A stretch of DNA of 64,000 bases from an uncultured virus (IMG/VR IMGVR_UViG_3300010885_044417) (Duplodnaviria > Heunggongvirae > Uroviricota > Caudoviricetes), in IMG/VR virus record IMGVR_UViG_3300010885_044417; one strand, given 5' to 3'. The notes below the pieces were generated by a model. It saw only the letters and a program-made list of their open reading frames with translations. It did not search any database and was not told the DNA's origin. Positions 1-64,000 of the stretch are shown here, piece after piece (positions within the stretch are counted from its first letter, which is position 1; every line of letters starts with the position of its first letter). A program made the position numbers and the translations under genes.

Positions 1-112
1 GGAGATTTCAGGCGTGAACATGCGCAAGCCGATGTGCGGCATAGCTGCTTGGAGAAGCTGGCCCTCGATCAGCATAGGAGAGTTTTCCAGCGCCTTTAGC
101 TTGCGGCGAGAA
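1..112. repeat. Terminal direct repeat, left copy (circular overlap)
   Basis: nt 1-112 (ggagatttcaggcgtg...gcggcgagaa) are identical to nt 63889-64000. Confidence 0.95.
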
Positions 113-696
113 TACGCTAGGCCATAGACACCGTCAATATGCTCGGCCAGAGTCTGCTCGTCTCGGCCGTCACGGTGGTAGTTGTAGTGCGCGATGACCG
201 GAGATAAACTTTGCGGCAGCCAGTGCTCGCAGAAGTTGTTCGTGTGGATATTCCATTCTGAGCCATAGGCCCAGTTGAAATACCCGTGGACCACGCGCTC
301 GTAAGCTTCGCTGGGTTCATACATCTCCTCGCGGGCAACAAAAGCGTCCTGGTGCGCCTGGATTGTCTCTTCTGGCGTGTCCAGAAGTGCGACTAGGTAG
401 ACAATTCCCAAGTCATTCATGGCCTGGTTGAGGAGAGCCGTCTGCGCCAAGAGCGTCGAGCCTCCGCGGTAGGCCATGCCATAAATCTGCTCCGACGGCC
501 AGTGGCGGTCAATGATGACGGGGCAATACCTCGACCAGCGCAGCGCTAGCCGAAGGCTCCCGACTTGGTAGGCAAACAGCCGGTCTCTGAGCGTTAGGTG
601 CAGGTAGCGGCCGCCGTGGCGCTTGCGGAATTCTTTGGCCCAAGTGGTCTTGCCGACTGCGTCAGGCCCTTCAACAACGATGATTGGGTAGTTCAT
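1..696 (-). CDS. Thymidylate-kinase-like dNMP kinase, 243 aa; spans the circular junction and ends at 63853
   Basis: Not in the ORF track. Translated by hand from ATG at 696: MNYPIIVVEGPDAVGKTT (P-loop)...VIIDRHWPSEQIYG. Open to nt 1, then continues 63888 to TAA at 63855-63853. Confidence 0.85.
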   Translation of the reverse strand, partial: MNYPIIVVEGPDAVGKTTWAKEFRKRHGGRYLHLTLRDRLFAYQVGSLRLALRWSRYCPVIIDRHWPSEQIYGMAYRGGSTLLAQTALLNQAMNDLGIVYLVALLDTPEETIQAHQDAFVAREEMYEPSEAYERVVHGYFNWAYGSEWNIHTNNFCEHWLPQSLSPVIAHYNYHRDGRDEQTLAEHIDGVYGLAYSRRKLKALENSPMLIEGQLLQAAMPHIGLRMFTPEIS

Positions 697-698
697 GG

Positions 699-1244
699 CT
701 AGAAAATTTCGTCGACAAGCTGGGTGGCAACGCGGCGAAGCACTGGAAAAAGCTTTGGCGAGAAGTTGATCGGAAGGTCCGGCAGCTTGCCGTCGACTAC
801 CTGATGCTGAGCGCGGCGGAACTCGTCGATCGAAAAGAAGCTTCGGAGGTCAGCCAGGACGATCGCGTCGTGCTTGTCTGGCTCCATATTCTTGACGCGC
901 TCGGCCAAGCCATAGACAGGCAGCGACCAGACGCCAATGACCCAGTCAAAGCCGTCGCCATTGATACTGCGGTAGACAGTGTGGAAGCTGCAGTTTTCAG
1001 GAAGCTCAGCCACGCCAAGCTCCTCATAGAGCTCGCGAACAATTCCAGACTCAAAGCTTTCGCCGTGCTCAAGGAGGCCGCTAGGGGCAGACATGCAGTT
1101 CTTGGCAGAGCGCACGCCTTCTCCACGCCACAAGAGCGCGGCTTTCTTGGTCTCAGGGTCATACGGCAGGACCATGACCACGAAGTGGGGAAGTGGTTCG
1201 GCCAGGTGCTTTTTTTCAACTAGGGCAGGATCATTGTCGGGCAT
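699..1244 (-). CDS. Nudix hydrolase
   Basis: Canonical Nudix box GLLEHGESFESGIVRELYEELGV. Start placed at ATG 1244 (MPDNDP), just after the polA stop. Confidence 0.9.
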   Translation of the reverse strand: MPDNDPALVEKKHLAEPLPHFVVMVLPYDPETKKAALLWRGEGVRSAKNCMSAPSGLLEHGESFESGIVRELYEELGVAELPENCSFHTVYRSINGDGFDWVIGVWSLPVYGLAERVKNMEPDKHDAIVLADLRSFFSIDEFRRAQHQVVDGKLPDLPINFSPKLFPVLRRVATQLVDEIF

Positions 1245-1263
1245 GTTGGTGTTGGGTTTGGGG

Positions 1264-3087
1264 TTACTTGAGGTAGCAGGGTGTGATCTTGGCTTCAGAG
1301 TCGAGAGCGATGCCGGGCATCCACTCACACTCCTCGCGCATGATTTCTTGCACGCACTCGAAAGCGTCTTTCGCCTGGTCAGCCGGCACTTCATCTGTGA
1401 TGACTTCATCGTGGACGGCAAAGAGAGTTGGGATTCCGGCATCTTCGATCTTGAGCAGTTTCTCGTAGAAGCAGTCCCGAGCCGTGGCCTGGATAATGTT
1501 CTCAACGCCGAGGCTGCCCCACATCCGGTTGACTCGGCCAGTGGCTAGCGTCGCCGTGAGCTGCCCTTTGACCTTCCTGACGTCTCGGTAAATCATGCTG
1601 TTCCAGCTAGGGAGCTCGACTTCCAGGTCGCCGCCAATCGACGACTCGAGCTGCGCGTGGATCTTGTTCCAGAAGTTGACGATCAGCCTTTCCTTGCGGC
1701 GGAAGTCTGCCACCTGCGTCTTGGCTTCCTTCGGCGTCATGTGGTAGCTGTATTGATTCCAGCAGTAGTCCACGAAGCGCTCGGCACCGCAGCCGTAGGA
1801 AAGCCCGAGCACGCGCATCTTGCACAGAGCGTAGGTGTGCGGGTCTGAAGTCTTCAAGTTAGGCCCATTGTAGGCCATCGTCTGGATTGCGTGGACCTGG
1901 TAGACTGAGATGCCCTTGTTAATCATCTTGATCTTCTCATGGTCATTGACCATCCATGCCAAAGTGCGCGGCTCGATTTGGGCCAAGTCAGCCACGATCA
2001 GCTGGCCGCCGTTCATCGCGGCTACCGCTTTGCGCATGTCCACCAAGTCTTCGGCAGGGAGGCTCTTGGCTTTTTGGCCTGGAGCCAGGTCGACGCAAGG
2101 AAACGGATCTCGCTGGAAGCCTTGCACGTTGAAGCCTTGGTCGCCGCTGGCTCTCTTTGTGTGGGCGCCGCAGTATTTCTGGCTAAAGTCAATTCTGCCA
2201 TCAGAGCGGATACGGTTGCGCATCGCCTGAAGCTTAGTCATGAGAAGATTAGCCTTGCGGTAGCGGCGCATAGACCTGACCCACGGAATGTCAGGATGCT
2301 CAGCTTCCCAGCGCTGGCAATCCGTGTTGTCTTCAGCCAGAGAGCGGGGAGGCGTGATCCCGATCTTGCGGCATTCTTCGGCCACCGCGATCTGCGAAAG
2401 CACGGCCGCTTCTTCGGAAGTGCCATTTGCCCAAGGAATCAGCTTCTTGGCTTCCCAGCATGCGCGCTCAAGCCTGGCAATTGACTGATCCAAATACTCG
2501 CTATCGGCAGGCAAGCCTCGAAGGACTTGCCGGGTCGTCATCTCGCTAATCCGCTGTTCGACGGCCGGCCACTTGTCCGAAAGATCTTCCCACAGTCTCC
2601 AGCACCAGTACGCGTCGCGCTCGGCGTACTCCAAAATTGCAGGCCAATCCTTGCTGTTGAGCAGCTCTCGATAGGTCTTATTCTCCATGACTTTCCGAGC
2701 GTCCTTGCTAACGTCGGCGCCAAAAGCTTTTTCGCAGGCTCCCTTTAAGTCTCTAGGAAGGCCGAGGTACGAAGTCAGATTTGCCGTGCAGTGCCAATTC
2801 TTTGGAGTATGCTGGGAAAGCTCTGGATGAATCTCGCATAGGCGCCTCCAAACTCGGCGGTCAAATCCTGCATTGTGGCTTGCCCAATCGAGGCCGCTAA
2901 TTTGGCCCCAGTCAAAATCATCGGGATGGCCGACAAATGAACCGCTGCGCGTGTGCACTGAGCATAGATAGACTTCAACTTCTGGATGGTGGAGGTACTG
3001 GTCGACTCCCATAGTCTTGAGGCCGATCTTCCTCTTAGGGAAGAAAGACGTTTCGAAGTCGATTGCGGCGTGTTCTTTTGGTTTCAT
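1264..3087 (-). CDS. polA: Family A DNA polymerase with 3'-5' exonuclease domain
   Basis: ExoI IDFET, ExoII HNAGFD, ExoIII YAERD; motif A DLAQIEPR, motif B KMRVLGLSYG, motif C VHDE. Confidence 0.95.
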   Translation of the reverse strand: MKPKEHAAIDFETSFFPKRKIGLKTMGVDQYLHHPEVEVYLCSVHTRSGSFVGHPDDFDWGQISGLDWASHNAGFDRRVWRRLCEIHPELSQHTPKNWHCTANLTSYLGLPRDLKGACEKAFGADVSKDARKVMENKTYRELLNSKDWPAILEYAERDAYWCWRLWEDLSDKWPAVEQRISEMTTRQVLRGLPADSEYLDQSIARLERACWEAKKLIPWANGTSEEAAVLSQIAVAEECRKIGITPPRSLAEDNTDCQRWEAEHPDIPWVRSMRRYRKANLLMTKLQAMRNRIRSDGRIDFSQKYCGAHTKRASGDQGFNVQGFQRDPFPCVDLAPGQKAKSLPAEDLVDMRKAVAAMNGGQLIVADLAQIEPRTLAWMVNDHEKIKMINKGISVYQVHAIQTMAYNGPNLKTSDPHTYALCKMRVLGLSYGCGAERFVDYCWNQYSYHMTPKEAKTQVADFRRKERLIVNFWNKIHAQLESSIGGDLEVELPSWNSMIYRDVRKVKGQLTATLATGRVNRMWGSLGVENIIQATARDCFYEKLLKIEDAGIPTLFAVHDEVITDEVPADQAKDAFECVQEIMREECEWMPGIALDSEAKITPCYLK

Positions 3088-5498: not shown

Positions 5499-5777
5499 TT
5501 AGGCATTCTCAGTGTTGAGGATCTCATGGATCCGGTTCGCCAGCTCGCCGAGAGTCAGGTCAGCTGAATAGCCGAGCTGCTTCTCGTCGAGAAGACTGGA
5601 GATTCTTTCCTCGAACTCAGAGACAAGCTCAACCATGTCGAGGCTGTCAAGTCCAAGGTCTTCCTGAAGGCGGGTCTCAGCGGTGAGCTCGCTTTTAGGC
5701 GCTGCGTCGAGGGTTTCAAGACAATCCTTAAGAATCTCAAGGATGTCTTCCTGGTTGGGTTTGGGCGTAGTGCTCAT
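5499..5777 (-). CDS. acpP: Acyl carrier protein
   Basis: Small, very acidic protein with LQEDLGLDSLDMVEL (phosphopantetheine-attachment Ser) and C-terminal TLGELAN. Confidence 0.85.
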   Translation of the reverse strand: MSTTPKPNQEDILEILKDCLETLDAAPKSELTAETRLQEDLGLDSLDMVELVSEFEERISSLLDEKQLGYSADLTLGELANRIHEILNTENA

Positions 5778-6945: not shown

Positions 6946-7452
6946 TTAGGCTTGGATTTGCTGACTAAAAATAAACTCGGCAATGCGGGCGCGGATTGAC
7001 GATATTGGAACGCGCACAAGGCGAACATCGTTTTGGCTGAGGATCTCCATGCCAACCGTATCCCTTGGGTAAGGCTCGCCATAGACAACAGTGTGCACGC
7101 CGTGCGCAACTAAGTTTAATGCGCAAGGAGTGCAAGGGATCGTCGTACAAGCTACGATGTAAGCTTCGCCTCTGCGGAACAAGCTGCAAAGATTTGCCTC
7201 GGCGTGAATGACATGAGTCCGGCGGTTCTCGTCAACATTCCACCATTCTTGAGGCTGATACATCCCAGCCGCAAGTCCGTTGTACGCGGTAGCAATGACT
7301 CGGTTGTCTTTAGTTAAAGCCGCGGCGCCGACTTTACGCTTAGGGTCTTCAGAACGCATCGAGGCGATGAGCGCCAAGGCTAAGGCGTATTCTTCCTTGC
7401 TCAGGCGCAGAGCCGACGGTTCTGCTGGGTGTTTCTCGATGTTATTGCTCAT
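6946..7452 (-). CDS. dCMP deaminase
   Basis: RSEDP..KVGA, YNG, HAE and PCTPC Zn motifs. Start moved to ATG 7452, which lies 10 nt from a promoter -10. Confidence 0.92.
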   Translation of the reverse strand: MSNNIEKHPAEPSALRLSKEEYALALALIASMRSEDPKRKVGAAALTKDNRVIATAYNGLAAGMYQPQEWWNVDENRRTHVIHAEANLCSLFRRGEAYIVACTTIPCTPCALNLVAHGVHTVVYGEPYPRDTVGMEILSQNDVRLVRVPISSIRARIAEFIFSQQIQA

Positions 7453-7500: not shown

Positions 7501-8355
7501 CTACGTAGATTTTGGCCAGTCTCGATAGCTATTGATGCTAGCCCTGTCAATGGTCGTGGTTACTTCGCCAGCAACGTTCCAAAACAAATCGCCGGGCTCT
7601 GTGTATTCCCACACTTTTGCGTCGTAGTTTGACGCCGATGGAAACGGTGGCTTAACGAGGCTGTCTTGCGCGAAGTCTCTGTAGTGGCCGACAATGTTGC
7701 AGCGGCCGCGTTCGCCATGCTGAATGTTGCGAGCAACCGCGACGCCATTTGCTTGAGCCTCGGGCCAAGCAATCTGCAAAGCTCTATTAAGAACGCCAGT
7801 TGAGAATGCCGTCCAGAAAGAATCCGGAATGCAAAGATCAAACGCGGTCTTGACAATCATTGCCGTGACTAGCTTGTGCTTAAGTCCGAGCGGAACAAAG
7901 AAAGCGTTATTTTCTTCAGCCCACTTAGCCGCGATCAAGTTTAAGTTCGGCATTGCCGCTATGCGGTGGAAGTGGTACTCGCAGCCGTGCTCAATGCACC
8001 AAGCCTGATGCGTTGAGACTTCTTTTGAAGAAGGCATAAACAGAACCAGCTTTTTGCCGTAGAGTTTGCATAGCTTAGTGAGGCTTACGCCTGCAAATCC
8101 ACACCGAGGCTGCACATAGACAATTGTGTCACTCGGGCAAGTTGCAACTAAAAATTCACCGGCTCTGGCCTTAGTTCCAACATCGATTAAGTCTTCGCGG
8201 ACAACATATCGGCCTTCGTGCATTTGAATGACCGGGTCCGGGAAGCTGCTCTTAAAATCGCCAACCATTTCGAGATACTGATCTCGCGTGTAGATGGCGT
8301 CTTTGTTTACTTCCGAAGCTGTGACTGAAAATTTTGGTACTCTTGTTCCGTCCAT
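7501..8355 (-). CDS. PLP-dependent enzyme (fold type II-like), of the kind seen in phage DNA hypermodification loci
   Basis: VVREDLIDVGTKAR (PLP Lys), GFAGVSL, FVPLGL, AFSTGVL, YDAKVW, FWNVAG. Confidence 0.8.
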   Translation of the reverse strand: MDGTRVPKFSVTASEVNKDAIYTRDQYLEMVGDFKSSFPDPVIQMHEGRYVVREDLIDVGTKARAGEFLVATCPSDTIVYVQPRCGFAGVSLTKLCKLYGKKLVLFMPSSKEVSTHQAWCIEHGCEYHFHRIAAMPNLNLIAAKWAEENNAFFVPLGLKHKLVTAMIVKTAFDLCIPDSFWTAFSTGVLNRALQIAWPEAQANGVAVARNIQHGERGRCNIVGHYRDFAQDSLVKPPFPSASNYDAKVWEYTEPGDLFWNVAGEVTTTIDRASINSYRDWPKST

Positions 8356-9272
8356 ATTTTTCTAAGGATTGAGTTGTTCTTGTAAACTTTGCCGCCATTC
8401 TTAAGAATATGGTCTCGAGACTGGTAGTCTAGGAAGTATCTGACAGGATCGCAAAGCCGTGAATCCTCGATAGAATACGGCATGGAGTTGTACCGCTCGG
8501 CCAAAAAAGCAATTGCCTCGTCTGAGCGGCATCGACCAAAGATTGCTTTAATGCACTTTTGGGCGTTTGTCCCGGCATAAATCATGCTTGCAGGATTTAC
8601 AAGCTCAGCGTGATACTCGGCCACGTCTGCCGCAAAGGCGCTAAGTACAAAAGTCTGCCTCTTAAATCCAGACTCTTTTAGATATTCGTTGCCTTTGTCG
8701 ACAAAGTCAATAATCTCGTGCCGCGCATCGAGCACTTCGCTTTCTAAGAATTTGACTAAGCCGTAAGCGTGGTCTTGAATGAACGTCCTTAAGCCGATAG
8801 AAAACTGAGGAAGCAAGTAGCCTTTGTTGTCGCTAAACTGAGCAGGAGGAAGATCCTCGAGCCACTGCTCATATCGGTACCGGCCGTTGAGAATACTCTT
8901 AACGACCCAGAAATTCCCAAAGCCGTGACTGCCAGGCTTGTAGTTAATGCCCGATCCGCACAGCCTGAATAGGTAGTAGAGCATTAGCTTATCGATCCTT
9001 CGGCTAACGGCATGGTCTTTGAAACGCACGCCGTGGCCTTTAGGATCCAGCTCGCGCTTATGCAAAGCTTCTAAGAACGAGCAAAAGGCGGCATAGCGCC
9101 TGTCGAGCATGTCGTAAATCGGAACGTGGAACACGAGGTCGTCGTCGACCATGTCTCGCAATTCTTCTTCGGACACGCCAGCTTTATGACCATCGAAGTA
9201 GTACTCCTGCATGGTCAAGCTCTTAATGTGGTAGTCGTCAAGCGCGTCGAGGATTTCTGATTTGATTTGCAT
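8307..9272 (-). CDS. 5-HMUDK / aGPT-pyrophosphorylase clade 1-like DNA-base kinase (divergent)
   Basis: DDDLVFHVPIYDMLDRRY, FVLSAFAADV, YAGTNA and IEDSRLCDPVRY occur in the order of that family's conserved blocks as recalled. Start placed at ATG 9272 (MQIKSE). Confidence 0.55.
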   Translation of the reverse strand: MQIKSEILDALDDYHIKSLTMQEYYFDGHKAGVSEEELRDMVDDDLVFHVPIYDMLDRRYAAFCSFLEALHKRELDPKGHGVRFKDHAVSRRIDKLMLYYLFRLCGSGINYKPGSHGFGNFWVVKSILNGRYRYEQWLEDLPPAQFSDNKGYLLPQFSIGLRTFIQDHAYGLVKFLESEVLDARHEIIDFVDKGNEYLKESGFKRQTFVLSAFAADVAEYHAELVNPASMIYAGTNAQKCIKAIFGRCRSDEAIAFLAERYNSMPYSIEDSRLCDPVRYFLDYQSRDHILKNGGKVYKNNSILRKIWTEQEYQNFQSQLRK

Positions 9273-10125
9273 AGTGCTTAGGGCGGATGTGGACAGATTG
9301 TCTGGGTTCCATGACTTCGTTCTCGTATTGCTCGAGATTGTTGTACCATTCCTTAGGCCACTTGTGGACTTCAAGGCTGGAGTTGCAAAGGATTGCGTTA
9401 AACTCTTCCATGAGGTAAGTCCTATCAGCCTGGCTACCGTAGAACGGTTTGCCTTTGTAGAGGCCTGTGCCCGGCAGCTTGCGGCTTTCGCTTTCGACAG
9501 GCAACAGGCAAGAAACCTTTGCGCCGCAGTTTCGAGCAAAGTCAACATAACGGCTTGCCAACTGGCGCGTGGCAGTCAGGGGGTCAGCTTGGCGGCATAA
9601 GTGGAAGCGGATGTCGATGTTGCCCATGTAAAGGAAGTCGGCTTTCTTTGGGTCGTTCAAGAATCCCCACAAAGTCTGGCCGTCTCGGCGCTCAATCATG
9701 TGGTCGGCACCAGGCCAGACTGAGAGCGAGTGGCTGTCGCCAAGCATCAGCTTATTGCGCGGAGGAAAAACCACGCCAGGAATCTGACCTTCAAACTCAT
9801 ATTGGCCAGGCAGACGTTTCTCAAGAAAATCCTGCAGCTGGAAGCCGTCAAACTGGTCGACCATCGCCGTCTCGAAAGCCGCGGCCAATTTCTCAAGCCG
9901 TTTGTGAATTGCTTCGCCGATTCCGCCAATGACGTTGAAGACGCCGGGCTTAAAGTTGAGGCCGTGGTTAATGATGAGTCGGTCGTAGCCAGACCAGTCG
10001 TCGTTCTCAGTGAGAAAGTCTGCGTCTGGGTCGATAAGCTCGCGCACGATGTAGTTCCATCCTGCCGAGTGGCTATTGAGGCTGGTTGACGGGTTATTGA
10101 GGACCCCGATGAATCCTGTTTTCAT
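9238..10125 (-). CDS. SGNH/GDSL-hydrolase-like protein
   Basis: LMLGDSHS (block I), DGQTL (II), YMGNID (III), SVH (V) in the C-terminal half. Confidence 0.55.
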   Translation of the reverse strand: MKTGFIGVLNNPSTSLNSHSAGWNYIVRELIDPDADFLTENDDWSGYDRLIINHGLNFKPGVFNVIGGIGEAIHKRLEKLAAAFETAMVDQFDGFQLQDFLEKRLPGQYEFEGQIPGVVFPPRNKLMLGDSHSLSVWPGADHMIERRDGQTLWGFLNDPKKADFLYMGNIDIRFHLCRQADPLTATRQLASRYVDFARNCGAKVSCLLPVESESRKLPGTGLYKGKPFYGSQADRTYLMEEFNAILCNSSLEVHKWPKEWYNNLEQYENEVMEPRQSVHIRPKHYANQIRNPRRA

Positions 10126-28386: not shown

Positions 28387-28408
28387 TCCGCTCATCTTGG
28401 CCCAAAGC

Positions 28409-29976: not shown

Positions 29977-30692
29977 ATAAGCTCCTCATCTGCATACAAG
30001 CTTGGGAAGGCGATATCGTCCAAGCTGAAAATCTTGCGCACGTTCTTTGTGACTTATCTCCTAAACGGTCTCCGTATCTCCATGCCGATATTGCGCTGAT
30101 TACTAGGTTTGACTGCCGTCCCTTTAACAAAAAAGTCTTAAGCCGCCTTGAAGAAGCTTTTGAGCACGTGTATCAGCACGTAGGCGAGCGCCGCGAGACA
30201 GGTTGGCCTGCAGGATGCAACGCTCTATGGTTTAGCACAATTTCTTGGTCCGCTGGAATGGTGCGCAACCGAAAGTTTTCCTATCCGGTTCTTCTTACAA
30301 CAGAAGCCGACGCTTGCCCGCTAGTTGCTGATTGGGATCAGCAGCTTTTTGCTGAATGGAATAAAGCAAAGAAATCCGTAGTCGGCGATTGGCTAGACTC
30401 GGGTTCTGACGAGTGCGGGCACATCAATGGCAATATGATGGTCGATTCAAGCATTTTTGACATGGACTACAAATTGGTCGGCTGCGACGGCAATCAGGCT
30501 TGGGACACGGTGCTCGCGCCTACTTTCAAAAGGCTTGGCTGGTATGACACGCCGCTAATCCATTCAATGTGGAAAACAGAGACTCTTCCAAATTCCGAGA
30601 TTGAGAAATTGACGAAAGACGGAGTCGTCTGGCTTCACGGCGTCAAGGACTCTTCAGTTCAAGACTACGTAGCAAAGAAGTTTGCTTCGTAG
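29973..30692 (+). CDS. Putative glycosyltransferase-like protein
   Basis: GWPAGCN, LTTEADACP (ExD), HINGN, WD, HGVK. Confidence 0.45.
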   Translation: MNKLLICIQAWEGDIVQAENLAHVLCDLSPKRSPYLHADIALITRFDCRPFNKKVLSRLEEAFEHVYQHVGERRETGWPAGCNALWFSTISWSAGMVRNRKFSYPVLLTTEADACPLVADWDQQLFAEWNKAKKSVVGDWLDSGSDECGHINGNMMVDSSIFDMDYKLVGCDGNQAWDTVLAPTFKRLGWYDTPLIHSMWKTETLPNSEIEKLTKDGVVWLHGVKDSSVQDYVAKKFAS

Positions 30693-47207: not shown

Positions 47208-47990
47208 ATGGGAGGCGCACCTTCAGGCCAAGCTACGTACGCGGAACCCCTCGGCGCCCAGTATGCCGCAGGAATGGGAAACGCTTTAGCGCTAAGCAAC
47301 AAGGTTGTTGACTACGCTGTCGAAAATAGGCCCGAGCTTCGCGAAGCCGAAATTAACCGGCTTCAGACCATGGCTCCGAGAGAAGCGCTGATCAATGCGC
47401 TAAAATCTGCGGAGATGGAAAGAACTTTGACGCCAGACGTGGCAAAAGTCCGTCTAGGGCTTTCAAAACAAATGGCTGAAGATCTCGATGGCGGGCCTTC
47501 TAAAGAGCTTTCCAATATGTGGTTGAAGCAAGGTCTTTCAGATGCAATTGCTACCGGCGCCCGATCTGATTCTGGGTTTGCTCGCGCAGCATTAGCTGAT
47601 TCGACTAGGCGCGACTATCTTGCAAACCGTAGAACTCAGCAAGACCGCGCAGCTGCCTTTTTAGCGGCAAACCCAGTTCCGGTTGCCGGCCTAGATCCTG
47701 GCTCTTTAGCCAGTATCATGACGCAGACAAACGCAGAAAATGCCAACGCTCGTGACTCCTACAAAACGCAAGTTCTCGGGGCTTTAGGAAACCAAGCTGC
47801 CAATGTCACAAATGCTTTCCAACAGGCCATGCAAATGGAAGCGCAGCGCCGAGCCTACAACGCGCAAGCCGCCAACTCGATGACCGCAGCCAACATGCAA
47901 GCCAGCAGCTCTAATTCTGCATCTTGGATGGGACTCGGCGGAGCCGGAATTGGAGCCGCGGCTGGAATTGGAGCCGCGGTTATTATTTAA
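47208..47990 (+). CDS. Internal virion/ejection protein, paralog 2
   Basis: Colinear with paralog 1 (RLQTMAPREA, GPSKELSN.WLKQG, NVTNAFQQAMQMEA). Confidence 0.65.
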   Translation: MGGAPSGQATYAEPLGAQYAAGMGNALALSNKVVDYAVENRPELREAEINRLQTMAPREALINALKSAEMERTLTPDVAKVRLGLSKQMAEDLDGGPSKELSNMWLKQGLSDAIATGARSDSGFARAALADSTRRDYLANRRTQQDRAAAFLAANPVPVAGLDPGSLASIMTQTNAENANARDSYKTQVLGALGNQAANVTNAFQQAMQMEAQRRAYNAQAANSMTAANMQASSSNSASWMGLGGAGIGAAAGIGAAVII

Positions 47991-48883
47991 TGGACTCAAA
48001 GATCGATCTAGCGTTAGACCGGATTGAGCGTTGGCGTCAAGTTTGGCCCAACGCGGCGGTCCTTTGGAGTGGAGGAAAGGACAGCACGGCAATGCTGCAC
48101 CTGCTTAAATTTAAGGCTGGCCTAGATTTGCCAGTCGTGCAGTACCGCGAGCCTAAATTTCGAGAGCGCTACGTGTACTCTGATAAGTTAATCAAAGACT
48201 GGCAACTAGAGGTCTATGACTACCCTCCTTTTCGGGTGGCCATAGCCGATGGACCCGATACAAGCACGGGAAAAATTCGTTTTGACATGCTGAAGTATCA
48301 GCAGTGGGGAGAAACTTCCATCATTCTTTCTTTAGGAACTGAACCTCCTGAAGAAGGAAAGCCATACCTTTGCGGCGTATCAGATTTCCTGCAGCGCCCG
48401 ACTGGAACTTTTAATTGGCCTTGGACTAGCGTGTTTATTGGAACTAAGTACTGCGATACCGATCCAATCAAAGGCCACGTTCCTTTAGCTGTCGATGTTC
48501 GTCCGACTAACGGCGGTCCGGTTAGTTTGTACCCATTGCGGGATTGGTCGGATCTTGATGTCTTCGAGTATTTGGAGGACAATGGAATCGAGCCAGACCC
48601 TACTAGGTACATCCAGGAAAACGGAATCTGGATTTCAAACCCAGATAAATCTCAGAATGCAGACTACTACCCAGTCTGTTTCAACTGCGTAAACCGCCAT
48701 GCCGGAGAATACGTAGACTGTCCTAAGCTAAAAGCCACCGTGCCAAATATGTCGCACCTGGCTCCGTACGAAGACGTAGTCTTTAAGGACCTTGGATTTA
48801 GGCCAGTTTGGCCTCAAGATCTTGCAGTAGAAGATAGTGTTCAAGAGTCAACCGGCTCGCTATCTTCTCGGCAAGACAAGTAA
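47990..48883 (+). CDS. PAPS-reductase-family (PP-loop) protein
   Basis: VLWSGGKDS, YPLRDWSDLDVFEYL, CFNC..CP. Start placed at ATG 47990. Confidence 0.8.
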   Translation: MDSKIDLALDRIERWRQVWPNAAVLWSGGKDSTAMLHLLKFKAGLDLPVVQYREPKFRERYVYSDKLIKDWQLEVYDYPPFRVAIADGPDTSTGKIRFDMLKYQQWGETSIILSLGTEPPEEGKPYLCGVSDFLQRPTGTFNWPWTSVFIGTKYCDTDPIKGHVPLAVDVRPTNGGPVSLYPLRDWSDLDVFEYLEDNGIEPDPTRYIQENGIWISNPDKSQNADYYPVCFNCVNRHAGEYVDCPKLKATVPNMSHLAPYEDVVFKDLGFRPVWPQDLAVEDSVQESTGSLSSRQDK

Positions 48884-51384: not shown

Positions 51385-54300
51385 ATGGCCACTGATTCTT
51401 CTTCACTGGCCAAAGATGTTGACGACGTCTTTGGCGCGCTTTTGGCAACCAAGCCAAAATACGAGCAGGAAGAAGAGAAGAAGCCTGAGGAAATTGCTCC
51501 TCTAGGCGAGGCCGCAAAGCATTTTGATACGGCCCTTAGCTCAGCCATTGACATGCCAGCCGGATACCAGGCTGAACAAACTCCCTATTCTCAGCTTGGG
51601 CCTGAGGCCAAAAAAGTTCAATTTCAATTTGACTCGCTTGAGGCAGGGACTGACCCAAAGAAACTTCGAAAACTTCAGGCTGATGGCGAGCCTCTAACTG
51701 AAGACCAAGAAAGGTCAATCTTTAAAGGCGAGCGTGACGCTCCTCTTAGTGAGCAAGCCAAAGACGTGGCATCTGGTTTTGGCCACGCTGTCAAAAGCCT
51801 GGTCTGGGATGATCTTCTTGTTGGAGGCGGGAAGACTATTAAAGCTGCAGCGGCTATTCCAATGGCGATGGCCAAACAGACTTACACTAACGACCCGAAT
51901 GCTTCTGACGAAGAAGCTCGGCAGCAGTATGCAGAGGCTGAGAAAAAGCATCAGGAAGGAGTCGACGCGGCAAAAGATGAAGCTTACAAAGCAGCTCGCT
52001 CATTTACTTCTGGCGTGGTTCAAGGAGTCGAAGGATTAACTGGCACCGCAGTTCGCGGCGCCATGTACGGCACTGGAATTACTGACCGAATCCGCGAACA
52101 GCCTGGCGGAAATATGATCATGGACGCCGTTCTTTCTGGAGGATCAGAAGACGCGGCATTGCTTTCGGCTCTCAATCTTGGCTCCGAGCAAAACCGCCCC
52201 TCGGGAATGCCTACCGGAAAATTTAAGGGCCGGGACGTTGCTGGAAATATCGATCTTGACAGCCGGCCTATCGTCCAGAACGAAGATGGTTCTGTTAGCA
52301 CGGTTCGGTCGATGTCGTTTAATGACGGCGAGCATGAAGTCTTAGTTCCTACAGTCAGTCCAGACGGCAAAATTCTTTCCAACGAGGACGCTATTAAGCT
52401 GTACCGTGAAACTGGCCAACACCTTGGGAAATTTAAGACTGTCGAAGATGCTGATGCTTACGCCGAAGCACTTCACAAAGCGCAAGAGGCCCGGTACGCA
52501 ACCCCTGCCGGGGTAGATCCTGGGCAAACAGAAGAACAATCTTTCCAGAACTGGCGGAACCGCGAGCAGATGCGGCGCATGGAAGCTGAAGAAAATCAGC
52601 AAAATCCAGACCGCGCGGCTGCCGTAATGGCGGAGCTTACAAGAATGGTCCCGGTTGGTGACCAGAAATTTCGTGAAGAGGTTGCGCAAAACATTCTTGA
52701 CAATCAAATCACGCCTGACCCAAATATCGCAGGCTTTGGTATGGCTGTGTCGCCAATTAACCCGGTCGTCTTTGGGGCTGGGCCGTTAAACAAACTGATT
52801 GGAGGAGTCGTAGATAAAGGTGCTGAAGGAGTACTTCGGGCAGCCCTTAAACCGACGGTGGCTGGAATGCACCCGATTGAGGCGCTTGGAGTTGGCCTCC
52901 AAAAAGTGGCTTCTGGAACGCAGACTGCCGGAAAGCGTCTGAGTGATTTTCTTACTGGAACCGAGGATTCGGCAGTGGCTAAGTTTTTTGATCCACTGGT
53001 CGTTGCGACTAAGCGGCCGGGAATGGTTCTTGAAGGAACTGGCCGAATTGCTAGGGATCTTGGCCGTCAGATTGACGAAGGCGGATTCATGGGCCGGACC
53101 GGGGTATTCCAGCGTGCCGGACAAGATGCCGAGTCTGGTAACTTTGTCAAAACAGTGTTTGGCCAGGGCGCGGAGAAAGAGCGCCCACGCGGCGCTGGTC
53201 GCGTCGCAGAAGATACCGAAGGTGCATCTAAGCCCCTTAGGATCGGACCTACCACGGCCAAAGCTGCAGATTGGGTTTCCAGTACCGCGTACAACCTAAA
53301 CAAGCATGGCCTCAGCGGCGGAATTATCGGGGTCGCTTTAGGAACTCCAGACATCGAAAATGCCGAGCAATTCGGAGCAGCTGCCGGTTCTGGCTATGCT
53401 TTAGGAGCTGCGCTGTCAACCAGGCCGGTCGGCAAAGTTGTCGATGTCCTGAATCCCAAGACTTCGTTCAAGCAGAAGGTTGACGCGGTCCTAGGTAAAG
53501 ACGCGGCTGAGCGGCGGGCTGACGAGGATGCCGACATTGCCAGATTCCGAGCTACGGCAAGCCCAGAAATTCTAGCTCAGACCGACAGCTTTGGGTCTCA
53601 AGAATCTCACGTCCAAGCTTGGGACAACCACATCTCCCAGCTTCAGCAAGCCAAGGACGAGCTCTCAAAATCTGGCGGTGACACTAAGAATGCTGATGCG
53701 CAAATTGCAGCCGCCCAAAAAATTCGAGAATCCTTAGCAAAAGCTTCTCCAGACCAATTCAACGAAGTTCAGCGTCGGATCAATTTAACGGTAGCCGATG
53801 CTCTCGACCTGGCCAAGACTACCGGGGAAGCTGTGGGTCTTAACGGCTTGAATGTGCATTTTCTGGATTCAAGCCAGATGCCGGAGTTCATCATGAACAA
53901 GTGGGGAAAAACCCTCACTGATGCCACCGCGGTTATTGACCAACTCGGCGGAAAGACCGACTTATCACAGTCTGAAAAAGAAAGCCTTTTGAGGGCCCGC
54001 GAAACAGTAGCCGAGGTCGAGAATCAACTTCAAATGTGGCCGAACCAGCGTGGTTTTGCCTTATCCCCCAATGAAATTGAAGAAGACACTCCTGCGCATC
54101 TTCGCATGGGCAATTTGCAAGGCCCTGAGATTGTAGTTAACGCGGACCTAATTCGTTCACAGCTTGGCACAAATCTGAGCCACGTTTTAGGCCATGAAGT
54201 TTTAGTCCACGGTCTTGGTCAGTTTAAGGAAGTTCGGGCGCTGATGCAGCCCATTCGCGAAAAGCTTTTTGGCATTCGCACCAAGAATATCGATGGGTCA

Positions 54301-57300
54301 GTCGATGAGATTTCCCCAGGCATTATTTCAAATGAGGCCCTTGACAAGATGGCCGAAGTCTACGGCTTAAAGATGGGCGGAGGAAATCCCGCGGCTGCCG
54401 CTGCCTGGAAGTCTGGCTTTAAAGACCAAGAGCAACTTCGCGACTACATGCGTGAAGAGTATCTAGCGGAACTTTCTGGCCTTTCGCATAACGGAACTGG
54501 CGACCTGCGCGCTACGCTGGATTCTCCTGGCCAAGCTATCTCTGACTGGTTAGCCGTGCAATCTGATAACTCTGTGGTCGGTAAACTTAGAGACATGCTC
54601 GGCTTAAAAGGTATTGTTCTTGACGATCAGGGCAAAGTCTCGGATATTCTCGGCACGACTCTCGATCCCCAGGCTTTGGCAATGGTGCGTCAGTACCAGC
54701 GCAAACTTTCGGACCTTAACCGCGGTTTGTCGTTTGACTCAAGTAAAGCTAGCGACGTCGACATTTCGCTCAGCGAGGCGATGACCAACCGAGCAGTGCA
54801 AGAAAAGACCAAAGACCAAGATCTTTGGGAAAAAGAGCAGGTCTATCAAGTCAAAGACCAAAATGGAAATGTCATCGCCGAGATTCCAATTTCTAGCGAG
54901 AATGAAGCCAATGGGCTGATTGGAGAATATCGCATCGAGAATGGATACCTAGTCGATGAAAAAGGCAACATGATGGAGCTTACGCCGGAACTGCGCAATG
55001 CTGCAATTCCTGGCGACGCCAAAATTTCTATTGAGAACCGAATTCTACGCAACCCAGATGGATCGCCTAAGATTCTAACTAATCGAGAAATCAGAGCTAG
55101 GGCCCGCGAGCGCAACCGATTAATCCGAGAAGCGCTTGATAATGCTCCGCAAGATGGATTTGAAGGCCGTCTCGAAGACATTGGCAACGGAGTCTACCGC
55201 GGCACAATGAGCCCGTCTCAAATTGCGGCTGTGATGGCTTTGCCAAATCGAATTGTGAGTCCCTCGTTAAAGCGCAAGATTGTGCAGTTCAATGAAGTCC
55301 TGCAGCGTAAAGACGGAAGCCGAGTCATTGTAGAGTATCAAGCTGCCTTGCGCGGAGGCGGATACAAGTCTCTGTCTCCCCGCATTCGGGACCTTGCGCC
55401 AATTGGATTCCACTTTAGCAAAGACGGGAACTTCCTAGCTGTCAACATGTCTGTCAGCAGAATGTTTGATAAGCTGAATGCCTGGGTTTCGCAGAAGCCG
55501 GAGAATCTCAATCTCTGGGGTCGCGACACCGGAAAGTTCTGGGAAGATGTCACTAAGGTCCTTGCCAACCACGCAGCAGGAAAACATGCTGAGGAAGGCC
55601 TTGACGTAGATCCTGAAATTGCTCTGCAAAAGAAGAATCGTGTCAACGACTTTTTTAACATTTTTGTCAAGGACACTAAGCACCTAAATCCTGATCGTAC
55701 GGTCCTAAAAACCCGCCGCGGTCAAGATTCTGCGGATCGAATCATTATGTCGACCCGCATGGATCGCATCAACGCTATGGAGCTTTCTAACGCCGAGAAG
55801 CTTCCAGTGAATTACGAAAAGATGAAGGTCAACTTCATGCCGCGAGGTAACTCTGCGGACAACGAGTTTTGGAACTCAGCTAGGCAGACGCTTTCAAACC
55901 GCGATGCTTTTGAAACTCGCGATGTGACTTTCAATGAGTCCGATGGGCCAAAGCCTCGCCGCGTTCTAAAGAGCGCTCCGCCCCAACCTGTTGGCGACAC
56001 TCCGGCTTTTGCCGAATGGCAGCTCTCCAACATGGAGTTTGGCGCGGACGCTGGCTACACGGTGGCTCAGCTTCAAGACTTTGCCGCGCAAAACAAATTT
56101 AAGTCTGGCGTAGGCAAAGAGTTTGCTAAAGATGCAAAAGAAAGAATTACGGCAAAAGAGTCTGATGCCATTCGAGATCAGCTAGCCAGAGATAACGGAT
56201 TTGAACCGCAAGGTGAGCACGAGCCAAATCCTGTATTTAGAGCTCGGCTTGAGGCTGCCAAAAAAGATCCAAACGGAGTCTTTAACCCAAAGTCGCCAAA
56301 CTACCGGATGTTTTTAGATTGGCATGGTCAGCCTTTTACGCTGCATGAGCAAGCCGTCGACTATTGGACGTCGTCTAACTCAACCTCGCAGCATATCAGC
56401 GCGCATGACTTAGTGAGCCAGCATGGCCTAGAGCAAGCCATGAAGATTGCTGCTGACCAGTCTTCAGTCGTTGGAAAAAATCTTTATGGCAACAGCTACG
56501 GGTTAACGCCAAAAACTTTTACCACTGAGCCTGTAGGCCACGCGGCTGGGACAATTTCAAAAACCTATTACGATCTTCGGTCAACCCCAGAAGCTATTCG
56601 CCATGTCGAGCTTAATGGCTTGATTGAAAAAGCCGCCGAAGAACTTCGCAACATTGACTACGGATACGAGAATAACGAAGTGCGCAAAGCTAAAGAGCGA
56701 GAAATCAGAGAGCTCAAGCTAGAACAAGCTGACTTGGCCACAAGGCTTTCAGCCATGGCCGCCGTAAAATACTTTTCGGAGCGAAATCCGAACACTGCGC
56801 TATTCTCTTCTGGCGACCACGCCCAAGAGATTTTTAGCCAGCTAGGGTCTGAAGCAGCGGATTCATTTAAGCAAGGAACCAAAGTTTACCGCGGTCTTCT
56901 CCTAGACGAAGAGTATCATGGCAGCTTTATTAAGCGCAAAGGCGACGAGACCCTGGCTTCTAGAATTGAGAAAGCGCTGGCTGAAGACGGGTACTTTGAT
57001 CTGCCTACTCGAGCATTGACCAGCTGGACGCAGACTGAAAAGTTAGCCTCGACGTTCTCTCGCCATGGTCAAGGCCAAAAAGACTACAACTCATCGGGAA
57101 CCGGAATTGTAATTACTCACGAGCCTGCCGCTTCCGAAGTTGTGATGCATCCTGGCATGCCGACGTACCAGTCAATCTTTGCCTACCGCAAGGCTAACGG
57201 TTACAAGTTCAATAGCGGCGGGATGGACCAAAAAGAAGTCATCCTACGGTCTGAGCCTGGCGTATTCCGCTTGACTCCGGAGAATACAAAGTTTGTGAAG

Positions 57301-58728
57301 TTTATGCCTAGCGAAGGAGGAAGCCGGTTTAGCGAAAGCCTGGCTGAACCTAGCGAGAGGCAGCTTAGCGAGACCGAGAGAAACGAGCTTGCCGACTACA
57401 TAATGACCAACATGGTTAGGCGTCCAGCCTTGCTATCGACTTTGGCGCAGCGTGAACTCTCGGAGCCCGCAACACTTTTCCGGCTTGGATTTGAGCTGCA
57501 TCCTAAAATGCGCGAAGGACTAGTCGTTGACATTTCTAATAAGGGAGAAAACTTTGCTTCATTCAGCAAGCGTGACTTAGTCAATGACCCTGACGCCCAA
57601 GAAGCTATTTGGTCCCCACTTGGCAATGAGAGTGTCGATGACTTGCCTGTCACGTACATTATTTCAAATGCTAGCCGAGGATTTGAAGTACCTTACCATG
57701 AGCTCGACGAGGATCCTTCATTTGCGAGTGTTGACCATCTTAGAAACCAAGAGGAGGTCTTAGTCACTGGAAAATACCGCGTCAACGGGATTAGCGTGGA
57801 GAATGGGCGCACGTTTGTTAATCTGGCTGAAGCGCACGACTCAATTACGCCAAATGCCCATGTGTGGTTTATGCCAGACTCCGGAATGGATGCTGACATG
57901 AATCTAGATCATGAAGCTTTCTTAGACCACCTCGAAGATAACTACCGAGATGGCGTGATTCCAGTTTCGCACTCGCTGCCTAGGAAGTTCTGGGAAGCCG
58001 CTCAACGGAAAGGTTACCTCGGAGATGCCGGAGATTTCGATGGCGTATTTGCAACTTTGGGAGACAAGAGCGACTTTTATTCTGGAAAAGACCGCGTCCA
58101 CGTGACCGCGCATTTGCCTGCTGACAAGTACCTTGAGCACCTGACTCCGGATATGCGCTATGATGACGTGCAGCATTTTGTAGAAGAGCATCCTTATGCT
58201 GATGGCGGGGACGTCTACGTGAATGCCCCGATCCCACTTGAGCATATTGTGAGCGTGGACGGAACAAAGTTTATGCCTTCGGGCTCTGAGTCGGCTAAAG
58301 AAGGCCTCAGCCTGGAGCAAGCCGAATTCACGGGCCTAGAACCTGCGGCTTTAGGTGGGGCGAGAGTGCCTAATCCTATGGAACCTTCCGACGCGCCCAG
58401 TGCCGCGCCATTAAGCTTGGCGGCCGCTCCTGGCGAAGTCTACAGGCAGAAGTGGGAGCAAGCCCGTGTGGTTGATGGTTCTGAGGCCAGGCCCCAAGAC
58501 CAGAAACTCTTTTTAGTCACGGTTGTAAAACCTAATGGGGAGCGGCTTGAAGACACATTCCCCATCCGGGCCCTGACCAGAGACAAAGCTTTTGAAGGAC
58601 TTAAAGACCTGCGCCGAAAAATCTTTACGCGGTACCAAGGAAAAGCCGACCTGATGGTTTCCGAGATAAGCCCAGAAATGGACAGCGGCCCGGTTGATTG
58701 GGCCGCTCTCCGAGATGCTGCTCGCTAG
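51385..58728 (+). CDS. Large polyvalent internal virion protein (zincin-like and ADP-ribosyltransferase-like domains)
   Basis: 2447 aa; GHEVLVHG; VYRG..TSWT..QKEV; LFR..ASFS..QEEV; four FMP linkers. Confidence 0.7.
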   Translation: MATDSSSLAKDVDDVFGALLATKPKYEQEEEKKPEEIAPLGEAAKHFDTALSSAIDMPAGYQAEQTPYSQLGPEAKKVQFQFDSLEAGTDPKKLRKLQADGEPLTEDQERSIFKGERDAPLSEQAKDVASGFGHAVKSLVWDDLLVGGGKTIKAAAAIPMAMAKQTYTNDPNASDEEARQQYAEAEKKHQEGVDAAKDEAYKAARSFTSGVVQGVEGLTGTAVRGAMYGTGITDRIREQPGGNMIMDAVLSGGSEDAALLSALNLGSEQNRPSGMPTGKFKGRDVAGNIDLDSRPIVQNEDGSVSTVRSMSFNDGEHEVLVPTVSPDGKILSNEDAIKLYRETGQHLGKFKTVEDADAYAEALHKAQEARYATPAGVDPGQTEEQSFQNWRNREQMRRMEAEENQQNPDRAAAVMAELTRMVPVGDQKFREEVAQNILDNQITPDPNIAGFGMAVSPINPVVFGAGPLNKLIGGVVDKGAEGVLRAALKPTVAGMHPIEALGVGLQKVASGTQTAGKRLSDFLTGTEDSAVAKFFDPLVVATKRPGMVLEGTGRIARDLGRQIDEGGFMGRTGVFQRAGQDAESGNFVKTVFGQGAEKERPRGAGRVAEDTEGASKPLRIGPTTAKAADWVSSTAYNLNKHGLSGGIIGVALGTPDIENAEQFGAAAGSGYALGAALSTRPVGKVVDVLNPKTSFKQKVDAVLGKDAAERRADEDADIARFRATASPEILAQTDSFGSQESHVQAWDNHISQLQQAKDELSKSGGDTKNADAQIAAAQKIRESLAKASPDQFNEVQRRINLTVADALDLAKTTGEAVGLNGLNVHFLDSSQMPEFIMNKWGKTLTDATAVIDQLGGKTDLSQSEKESLLRARETVAEVENQLQMWPNQRGFALSPNEIEEDTPAHLRMGNLQGPEIVVNADLIRSQLGTNLSHVLGHEVLVHGLGQFKEVRALMQPIREKLFGIRTKNIDGSVDEISPGIISNEALDKMAEVYGLKMGGGNPAAAAAWKSGFKDQEQLRDYMREEYLAELSGLSHNGTGDLRATLDSPGQAISDWLAVQSDNSVVGKLRDMLGLKGIVLDDQGKVSDILGTTLDPQALAMVRQYQRKLSDLNRGLSFDSSKASDVDISLSEAMTNRAVQEKTKDQDLWEKEQVYQVKDQNGNVIAEIPISSENEANGLIGEYRIENGYLVDEKGNMMELTPELRNAAIPGDAKISIENRILRNPDGSPKILTNREIRARARERNRLIREALDNAPQDGFEGRLEDIGNGVYRGTMSPSQIAAVMALPNRIVSPSLKRKIVQFNEVLQRKDGSRVIVEYQAALRGGGYKSLSPRIRDLAPIGFHFSKDGNFLAVNMSVSRMFDKLNAWVSQKPENLNLWGRDTGKFWEDVTKVLANHAAGKHAEEGLDVDPEIALQKKNRVNDFFNIFVKDTKHLNPDRTVLKTRRGQDSADRIIMSTRMDRINAMELSNAEKLPVNYEKMKVNFMPRGNSADNEFWNSARQTLSNRDAFETRDVTFNESDGPKPRRVLKSAPPQPVGDTPAFAEWQLSNMEFGADAGYTVAQLQDFAAQNKFKSGVGKEFAKDAKERITAKESDAIRDQLARDNGFEPQGEHEPNPVFRARLEAAKKDPNGVFNPKSPNYRMFLDWHGQPFTLHEQAVDYWTSSNSTSQHISAHDLVSQHGLEQAMKIAADQSSVVGKNLYGNSYGLTPKTFTTEPVGHAAGTISKTYYDLRSTPEAIRHVELNGLIEKAAEELRNIDYGYENNEVRKAKEREIRELKLEQADLATRLSAMAAVKYFSERNPNTALFSSGDHAQEIFSQLGSEAADSFKQGTKVYRGLLLDEEYHGSFIKRKGDETLASRIEKALAEDGYFDLPTRALTSWTQTEKLASTFSRHGQGQKDYNSSGTGIVITHEPAASEVVMHPGMPTYQSIFAYRKANGYKFNSGGMDQKEVILRSEPGVFRLTPENTKFVKFMPSEGGSRFSESLAEPSERQLSETERNELADYIMTNMVRRPALLSTLAQRELSEPATLFRLGFELHPKMREGLVVDISNKGENFASFSKRDLVNDPDAQEAIWSPLGNESVDDLPVTYIISNASRGFEVPYHELDEDPSFASVDHLRNQEEVLVTGKYRVNGISVENGRTFVNLAEAHDSITPNAHVWFMPDSGMDADMNLDHEAFLDHLEDNYRDGVIPVSHSLPRKFWEAAQRKGYLGDAGDFDGVFATLGDKSDFYSGKDRVHVTAHLPADKYLEHLTPDMRYDDVQHFVEEHPYADGGDVYVNAPIPLEHIVSVDGTKFMPSGSESAKEGLSLEQAEFTGLEPAALGGARVPNPMEPSDAPSAAPLSLAAAPGEVYRQKWEQARVVDGSEARPQDQKLFLVTVVKPNGERLEDTFPIRALTRDKAFEGLKDLRRKIFTRYQGKADLMVSEISPEMDSGPVDWAALRDAAR

Positions 58729-62998: not shown

Positions 62999-63835
62999 TT
63001 AAGCTAACAGCTTCGAGCTGAATTCTTGAAAGAACCCTTGAAGCCCAGACTTGTCATTTAAGTCAGGCTCGCCAAGAACCATTGCCAGCTGACCGCGGAC
63101 ATCTCCGATTGCCTCAAGGCTGTGGCCTGCCTCCAGCTCAAACGGGAGCTGCTGGTTCCAGTTTGAGATGGGCCAATCCTGGCACTTGGCAATGTCGCGC
63201 TCATAGACGTGGTGCGACCCGGCATTAAGAGTCAAAGTGCCAAGCTCAACCTCACGGCCATGCTGCCGAAGCATCTGCAACACGGACCATGACAGCATCG
63301 TGAAGTTGAAGACGTCGTAAGGGAAGCCCAGCCAGACGTCATTCGACCTCATCGTGTCAATGCAGTGCAGTTTGCCATCTCTGACCAGCCACTGGACTGA
63401 AAGCGTGCAAGGAACGTCTTTAGTCTCAGGCGGGTTCTCCCTCCAGATGTTGCACACGGCTTGCCGAGTGTCTGGGTCGACTAAAAGCCTGCGAGTAGCT
63501 TCTCCGATTTGGCTGCCGATCTTCGGTCCGTAGGCTCCAAAGAAATCTTTGCCGTTGTCGCTAAAGTTGGCAATATTCTTGCAATACTTGCTGATTGAGG
63601 CGACGTCATTCTTGCCAGAGATAATCCACCAGGCTTCAGCGGCCATGAACTTGTAGCTCAGCTTGCGTGCGGCATTGAGGACGATCGGATAGCGCATGTC
63701 GACATGGACTTGGCTTCCGGTGATTTCTCGGACTGACATGCCTCTCGGCGAGGATTTTTGGCCGTTGTGGATAACGCCTGCAAGGAGCATTCCCCAAGCT
63801 TCTGTTGCGGTGTGGGCGACTGGATTAGTGTGCAT
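62999..63835 (-). CDS. Thymidylate-synthase superfamily enzyme, Asp-type (candidate dCMP hydroxymethylase or methylase)
   Basis: GAYG, DTRQA, catalytic PCT, RSNDVWLGFPYD, SHHVYE. Confidence 0.85.
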   Translation of the reverse strand: MHTNPVAHTATEAWGMLLAGVIHNGQKSSPRGMSVREITGSQVHVDMRYPIVLNAARKLSYKFMAAEAWWIISGKNDVASISKYCKNIANFSDNGKDFFGAYGPKIGSQIGEATRRLLVDPDTRQAVCNIWRENPPETKDVPCTLSVQWLVRDGKLHCIDTMRSNDVWLGFPYDVFNFTMLSWSVLQMLRQHGREVELGTLTLNAGSHHVYERDIAKCQDWPISNWNQQLPFELEAGHSLEAIGDVRGQLAMVLGEPDLNDKSGLQGFFQEFSSKLLA

Positions 63836-63852: not shown

Positions 63853-64000
63853 TTAAGGTTGGACTTCAGGAAGAGGAATGCCTGGATTGGAGATTTCAGG
63901 CGTGAACATGCGCAAGCCGATGTGCGGCATAGCTGCTTGGAGAAGCTGGCCCTCGATCAGCATAGGAGAGTTTTCCAGCGCCTTTAGCTTGCGGCGAGAA
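63853..64000 (-). CDS. 3' end of the junction-spanning dNMP kinase
   Basis: Same frame ...RMFTPEISNPGIPLPEVQP*, ending just upstream of the TS-like gene. Confidence 0.8.
   Translation of the reverse strand, partial: SRRKLKALENSPMLIEGQLLQAAMPHIGLRMFTPEISNPGIPLPEVQP
63889..64000. repeat. Terminal direct repeat, right copy (probably cut by the window edge)
   Basis: Identical to nt 1-112. Confidence 0.95.

Follow-up and report, generated by a model that had tools for sequence, protein, structure and literature searches.

A predicted deoxycytidylate hydroxymethylase and a linked three-gene cassette that may decorate hydroxymethylcytosine in an uncultured tailed virus

The question raised by this locus is whether a phage encoding a thymidylate synthase (TS) homologue with Asp at the pyrimidine specificity position modifies its cytosine rather than its thymine, and what the neighboring genes would do to the modified base. 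The locus was analyzed within the window, the whole stretch of 64,000 nucleotides from an uncultured virus of the Caudoviricetes (IMG/VR IMGVR_UViG_3300010885_044417), which closes through a 112-base terminal overlap into a circle of 63,888 bases. The best overall explanation, given a probability of about 0.6, is that the TS homologue makes 5-hydroxymethyl-dCMP and a three-gene cassette decorates the resulting hydroxymethylcytosine (hmC), with acylation replacing phosphorylation as the activation step. The interest lies in this proposed downstream chemistry, for which the candidate genes are at 7501-10125, and not in the Asp itself.

The TS homologue and its genomic setting

The open reading frame encoding the TS homologue matched Pfam Thymidylat_synt (PF00303) with E 1.5e-22. 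An earlier note on this DNA had reported Asp in place of E. coli Asn177 and the catalytic motif PCT in place of PCH, and both readings were confirmed. The specificity codon is GAC and encodes the Asp of RSNDVWLGFPYD (residues 163-174); in a gapless alignment of this motif the solved ThyA chains 4dq1, 3qj7 and 4fog have Asn177 and the MilA chains 5jnh and 5b6d have Asp. PCT occupies residues 142-144, with Cys143 invariant. In the E. coli numbering taken from PMC13326640, Asp174 corresponds to N177D, Asp140 to L143D and Thr144 to H147, and Asp166 retains D169. Three of these positions are described there as diagnostic: Asp177 for dCMP, an acidic residue 143 for transfer of hydroxymethyl and not methyl, a rule that is a correlation in that source, and Asn169 for 5-hydroxy-dCMP synthase (PMC13326640). 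Positions 177 and 147 were the top two separating modified from unmodified contigs, and Asp177 alone is ordinary, marking a dCMP-type enzyme of a well-known class (PMC8670742). The pairing of an Asp177 TS with a deaminase is likewise already published (Yang 2021, 2024; bioRxiv 2024.12.05.627091).

Asp is present at position 177 in 30 of 30 related viral loci, indicating that the Asp in the window is not a sequencing accident; 28 of these loci have D143/D169/D177 and two have E143/N169/D177. The second diagnostic residue, Asp140, was not in the earlier note; it aligns with an Asp of both MilA and T4 gp42 at the position of E. coli Leu143 and points to hydroxymethyl over methyl. The D169N mark of the RB69-type 5-hydroxy-dCMP synthase is absent from the TS homologue, as is the combination of a non-acidic residue 143 and a nearby DHFR gene that marks the Xp12 type, a mark based on one reference only. 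Controls behaved as the residue rule predicts, with Asp177 in T4 gp42 and 44RR gp42 and Asn177 in the dUMP hydroxymethylases of SPO1, SP10 and M6 and in the 44RR td product, in agreement with the proposal of the earlier note that the specificity is for cytosine and not thymine. The TS homologue is predicted to be a dCMP hydroxymethylase, a known enzyme class, because Asp177, Asp143 and Asp169 are as in T4 gp42, 44RR gp42 and MilA. The solved relatives were, best first, MilA (5jnh/5b6d, E 1e-20), ThyA enzymes (4e-14) and T4 gp42 (5e-8). Ser164 and Arg124, residues of the deoxyribose type, stand where MilA has its ribose determinants Ala176 and Lys133 (PMC5175136), and a deoxynucleotide substrate is therefore predicted. 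TS-like genes with Asn169 and Asp177, the 5-hydroxy-dCMP synthase signature, were observed in L029, L030 and Tenacibaculum phage PTm1 (L125); the last also has a distant homologue of the SGNH protein described below, adjoined by neither a helical nor a PLP gene.

The earlier note had proposed a phylogeny including gp42, dUMP hydroxymethylases and ThyA. In a midpoint-rooted TS tree of 81 rows, from which duplicate motifs had been removed, gp42 fell in another clade, and the dUMP hydroxymethylases shared the side of the window TS without starred support.

On the minus strand the genes run in the order helicase, SGNH protein, helical protein, PLP enzyme, deaminase, exonuclease, acyl-carrier-like protein, further genes, PolA, Nudix hydrolase, kinase, TS and primase (Table 1). 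The kinase stop lies approximately 17 bases upstream of the TS start. This kinase was considered as a 5-hydroxymethyluridine DNA kinase (5-HMUDK) and rejected, being dNMP-kinase-like and without similarity to M6 gp54. The Nudix gene, which in close relatives likewise separates the PolA and kinase genes, encodes a candidate cleaner of the dCTP pool. No ThyX, DHFR or second TS was matched in the window.

Table 1. Coordinates of the main features in the window.
Feature	Position	Strand	Remarks
TS-family enzyme, predicted dCMP 5-hydroxymethylase	62999..63835	-	278 aa, P0001
GAC codon, Asp174, pyrimidine specificity position	63314..63316	-	
P-loop dNMP-kinase-like gene	1..696, across circular join to stop ~63853-63855	-	243 aa; phrog_761 thymidylate kinase E 5.9e-14
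Nudix hydrolase	699..1247	-	Pfam NUDIX E 1.4e-09
Family A DNA polymerase	1264..3087	-	Pfam/PHROG
dCMP-deaminase-family enzyme	6946..7452	-	PF00383 E 5.7e-13; candidate substrates dCMP or modified dC
Fold-type II PLP enzyme	7501..8355	-	phrog_7093 E 2e-32; PALP E 0.0073
All-helical HhH-superfamily protein, aGPT-Pplase/amino-acid:DNA transferase-like	8307..9272	-	321 aa, P0123
Two-domain protein, C-terminal SGNH fold	9238..10125	-	295 aa

Several other genes were observed in the window. A DUF5856 gene at 3860-4249 (-) carries the PHROG label starvation-inducible regulator. Three adjacent genes at 28397-30692 (+), immediately preceding the gene of the probable major capsid protein, appeared glycosyltransferase-like by eye on the basis of DXD-like motifs; only the first matches a PHROG, a family of unknown function, and their products may act on the virion and not on DNA. 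A gene of the PAPS-reductase family (47924-48883, +) lies among structural genes, and the 2447-aa protein encoded at 51385-58728 (+) has no Pfam match. The tetranucleotide TATA is rare in the window (14 on one strand, z -6.2, observed/expected 0.26) and TCGA is commoner than expected (z 6.1). The TATA depletion was set aside as a sign of unmodified thymine because it is not clearly repeated in relatives (z: L009, -2.2; L016, 0.8; L025, -0.3) and does not extend to other A/T-only palindromes.

The SGNH, helical and PLP proteins

The deduced sequence of the SGNH protein contains the Ser, Gly, Asn and His blocks of the SGNH hydrolase/acyltransferase fold, with Ser131, Asn169 and His279 invariant in 121 sequences. 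The predicted fold (pLDDT 95) places the SGNH domain at residues 121-289 with Z up to 11.5; a sequence search with the SGNH profile gave no match to a solved protein. The matches of the whole-protein fold searches were to the SGNH domain. Of the N-terminal approximately 120 residues, the first 92 are weakly similar in sequence to the N-terminus of T4 beta-glucosyltransferase (hhalign P 5.5e-4, probability 30%).

The model of the helical protein is all-helical (pLDDT 90.9). The protein matched no Pfam or PHROG family and gave no tblastn match among cultured phages and no Foldseek match with E below 0.001; its Atlas features (0.97) fell in clusters with HMUDK_hel as 13-36% and ADDT as 12% of members. 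Alignment of the model with PaMx11 gp46 (8z2m) by VIA-align gave Z 8.8 and rmsd 3.9 over 199 aligned residues, tied with queuine salvage hydrolase (Z 9.1 and 8.9) and AGOG (8.0), and for an all-helical model this likeness to gp46 is not decisive. Of 65 distant relatives, 64 retain Glu269 and 63 retain Cys274; these two residues align with a Glu...Cys pair in both M6 gp55 and SP10 gp186. M6 gp51 and ViI gp247 require a pair of this kind (PMC8989533), and its Glu binds metal (PMC13458397). Pfam ADDT (PF18724) gave no match to the helical protein and one match, at E 0.001, among 60 distant relatives; hhalign comparisons with M6 gp51, M6 gp55 and the 44RR C-terminal domain were not significant (best P 0.005).

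The PLP enzyme shares its PHROG annotation with M6 gp52, direct BLASTP to which was weak (E 0.001), and its aldimine Lys62 is invariant in 37 of 37 homologues. A PLP domain 31% identical to it was observed in cultured phages within a gene annotated as a DNA modification methylase (L038:8001-8762, Erythrobacter phage vB_EliS_R6L gp1; ZS04; Mae-JY30).

The earlier note had suggested an HMUDK/PLP-type pathway acting on hmC. The amino-modified hmC of that suggestion is favored by the present results; the kinase is not. With PF18748 and M6 gp54 as queries, no 5-HMUDK was found in the window, by PF18748 among the ORFs scanned (44 + 21) or by tblastn with M6 gp54; PF18748 gave no match in nine related records either, M6 serving as positive control. 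The SGNH-fold protein stands where thymine pathways have 5-HMUDK. Literature searches found no paper describing an SGNH/helical/PLP cassette.

Distribution of the cassette among related viruses

Scanning viral contigs with the single SGNH protein gave no match; a scan with an SGNH alignment located 279 loci, the best 80 of which were analyzed. Among these 80, the helical gene was present in 71 (67 of the window type and four of the 44RR type), the PLP gene in 69 and both in 61, and the order SGNH, helical, PLP was kept in all 61 tested. Fusion of the SGNH and helical proteins accounts for eight of the ten helical-family representatives longer than 480 aa. A TS motif was readable in 65 of the same 80 loci and was D143/D169/D177 in every one, the remaining 15 having no readable TS within the flank. 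The 65 cassette-side TS genes span separate clades of the TS tree but, the loci being related, do not represent 65 independent events. No Asn-type TS was found adjoining the cassette, tblastn with M6 gp54 gave no match in the best 80 of 279 loci, and in every readable case the cassette accompanied an Asp143/Asp177 enzyme. G003, a complete record in which SGNH and PLP genes are present, gave no PF00303 match. Three near-complete cassette records each have one TS, of the Asp type; two of them (L016 and L025) also carry ThyX, indicating that the single TS in those two is not needed for dTMP.

An acyl-carrier-protein-like gene (5499-5777, -; PF00550, E 1.8e-07) was observed within the replication run of the window. 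By tblastn a similar gene was present in one of 35 TS loci (L021, without the cassette) and in none of the best 80 of 279 SGNH loci; on these counts the gene shows no association with the cassette among relatives, and it was rejected as the source of the acyl donor.

The TS relatives were also compared for what accompanies the enzyme, in 34 loci comprising the window, L001-L030, AXL3, HTVC200P and one spring phage. The cassette was present in seven, a SAM methyltransferase near the TS in 18, both in none and neither in nine, L010 being counted under neither with a cut end of the cassette present. No SAM methyltransferase was found in the best 80 of 279 SGNH loci. In whole-record checks no SGNH gene was found in four near-complete records that are free of the cassette, L016 serving as the positive control, and no methyltransferase in five records, four with the cassette, a check that did not include a positive control. 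The cassette and methyltransferase states both occur within the sub-clade of the window and again within the AXL3 sub-clade. A quick PLP tree of 37 chosen rows placed the gene of the window within an 11-row set from phages with a CNDQ-type TS (SH-aLRT 99), and the window TS belongs to another clade, the two TS types being only approximately 25-30% identical. On these sequence comparisons the cassette has moved between lineages of predicted hmC phages, because the PLP and TS trees disagree.

Four of the related loci (L016:9020-9997, L013, L022 and L025) were observed to encode a dNMP kinase with a C-terminal extension of approximately 130 aa that resembles a uracil-DNA-glycosylase-type domain by eye, and in L001 and L021 a stand-alone gene like this extension comes after the methyltransferase gene.

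Proposed pathway, alternatives and comparison with known systems

In the proposed pathway the TS homologue would convert dCMP and methylene-THF to 5-hydroxymethyl-dCMP, which the adjacent kinase would phosphorylate; Nudix probably lowers dCTP, and PolA would incorporate hmC. That TS, kinase and Nudix place hmC in the DNA is considered very probable. Thymine would stay ordinary, with the deaminase most simply feeding dUMP to the host thymidylate synthase. Gene linkage suggests that the SGNH, helical and PLP proteins jointly act on the hydroxymethyl group of hmC, and the two steps taken together, hmC in DNA and its decoration by the cassette, are judged probable. An amine-type group on hmC is the likely product of the three enzymes. 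The third step is modeled on ViI and M6: the SGNH protein would acylate the hydroxyl to give a leaving group, a role taken by a kinase in the thymine pathways; the Cys of the helical enzyme would add at C6 and expel the acyl group, with an amino acid, Ser or Gly, adding to the C5 methylene; and the PLP enzyme would then decarboxylate the adduct to aminoalkyl-cytosine. This exact chemistry of acylation, amino acid displacement and decarboxylation is tentative. Against it, most solved SGNH proteins are hydrolases and the acyl donor is only hypothetical.

The preferred reading has to be weighed against a decoration of hmC by other chemistry, in which the acyl group itself stays as the end product, a small-molecule donor is first made by the PLP enzyme, or the helical protein is glycosylase-like. 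Fold-type II PLP enzymes often perform beta-replacement, the model of the helical protein is as close to HhH glycosylases and queuine hydrolase as to gp46, and some SGNH loci are without the PLP or helical gene, observations that give this alternative some weight. It is nevertheless regarded as rather doubtful, the conserved Glu...Cys paralleling the catalytic pair of M6 gp51 and ViI gp247 and the succession of transferase and PLP genes being that of M6. A different substrate would result if the TS made hm-dCMP, the deaminase converted part of it to hydroxymethyl-dU nucleotides and the cassette decorated hydroxymethyluracil (hmU) as in M6 and ViI. The deaminase gene lies directly after the PLP gene in the window, all characterized transferases of the clan act on hmU (PMC8989533), and seven of 90 deaminases from contigs with an Asp177 TS made 5hmdU in vivo with T4 gp42 (bioRxiv 2024.12.05.627091). 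The deaminase is found, however, in only 28 of the best 80 of 279 SGNH loci, a count limited by the flanks, and equally in relatives without the cassette; ThyX accompanies the cassette in L016 and L025, 44RR has an ordinary td besides gene 42, and the TS genes adjoining the cassette argue against this route, none being of the Asn type. Decoration of hmU is accordingly rated unlikely.

Farther from the preferred reading are two other identities for the TS itself. The TS could be a dCMP methylase as in Xp12, with the deaminase making thymine nucleotides from 5-methyl-dC; the PYD motif at position 177 is shared with Xp12, the pathway is published (bioRxiv 2024.12.05.627091), and the window is without ThyX or a second TS. 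The earlier note had considered formation of dTMP or hm-dUMP by deamination of modified dCMP to differ from the described dUMP-hydroxymethylase pathways; this branch is not new, having been described for Xp12-type phages and methyl-selective deaminases, whose preference for 5mC/5hmC over C is polyphyletic (bioRxiv 2024.12.05.627091). Residue 143 is Asp in 28 of 30 relatives and Glu in the other two versus Asn in Xp12, no DHFR was matched in the window, the Xp12 TS falls outside the window clade (on a long branch of unsure placement), and a methyl group would give the cassette nothing to act on, making a methylase improbable. Least credible of all is an ordinary thymidylate synthase or dUMP hydroxymethylase. 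The GenBank labels on the nearest records, 'thymidylate synthase' and 'deoxyuridylate hydroxymethyltransferase', favor it, as does the side of the tree shared with the dUMP hydroxymethylases; against it are the Asn177 of all three of these enzymes and of ThyA-type genes and the separate ThyX of relatives.

In the literature surveyed, amino acid and polyamine modifications of DNA are all on thymine and proceed via a phosphorylated intermediate, and the decorations of cytosine are sugars or a carbamoyl group. If true, the preferred reading of an amine-decorated cytosine formed via acyl activation would mean a further DNA base and a further enzyme activity, that of an SGNH protein on DNA, and could yield a new tool for labeling hmC. 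A broader formulation is possible and is offered as a conjecture: that a mobile three-gene cassette gives hmC phages a cationic, amino-acid-derived cytosine, a counterpart of 5-NeOmdU and 5-NedU, via a DNA-acting SGNH acyltransferase instead of a kinase, with a domain like the acceptor domain of T4 glucosyltransferase, and interchangeable with a SAM methyltransferase as decorator.

MilA, a CMP hydroxymethylase (PDB 5JNH, 5B6D), is the best solved relative of the TS homologue and has Asp at 143 and 177. The T4 pathway (gp42, gp1, gp56 and the alpha- and beta-glucosyltransferases) is similar in Asp177, Asp143, Cys-Thr and Asp169 and in the dNMP kinase, which in the window lies beside the TS. Unlike T4, the window represents a PolA phage of 63.9 kb with a TS only 26% identical to gp42 and in another clade, and it has the SGNH/helical/PLP cassette and no glucosyltransferase family match among the ORFs scanned. 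The Xp12/mSCD 5-methylcytosine system (bioRxiv 2024.12.05.627091) shares the combination of an Asp177 TS and a PF00383 deaminase. It differs in Asn143 versus Asp143 and in DHFR, which is two genes away in the same run as the Xp12 dCMP methylase; the window has extra decorating genes. In Stenotrophomonas phage AXL3 the module consists of methyltransferase, NTP pyrophosphohydrolase, kinase, TS and deaminase; the TS is of the same clade as that of the window, with 47% identity, and the kinase is directly upstream. AXL3 differs in its SAM methyltransferase and in having no cassette within the 24.6 kb examined, and its DNA resisted all but two of 37 enzymes, the sites of these two consisting of A and T only (PMC7504290).

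Aeromonas phage 44RR encodes an SGNH-helical fusion, ORF233c, with a helical part of a different subfamily, and has gene 42 but no glucosyltransferase (PMC2993671). If true, the preferred reading of a cassette acting on hmC could explain the fate of hmC in Aeromonas phages that have gene 42 and are without glucosyltransferases (PMC2993671). For the cultured phages 44RR2.8t and 31, which have the SGNH-helical fusion, the PLP enzyme gave no close homologue, and their adduct is expected to differ. The SGNH part was observed to match 38 Aeromonas phage records, and in 44RR2.8t (ORF234c-233c, L036:6408-10388) a sodium:solute symporter adjoins the fusion and might import an amine substrate.

Thymidine hypermodification in M6, ViI, PaMx11 and PhiW-14 proceeds with a dUMP hydroxymethylase, 5-HMUDK, ADDT/aGPT-Pplase2 and a PLP decarboxylase (PMC8989533). 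Unlike this type, the window has a cytosine-type TS, no 5-HMUDK that could be found, an SGNH gene in the cassette and a helical protein outside Pfam ADDT. It resembles the M6 and ViI type in the helical transferase-like gene followed by a fold-type II PLP gene, in the Glu...Cys motif and, by a match tied with those to other enzymes, in the likeness of fold to gp46.
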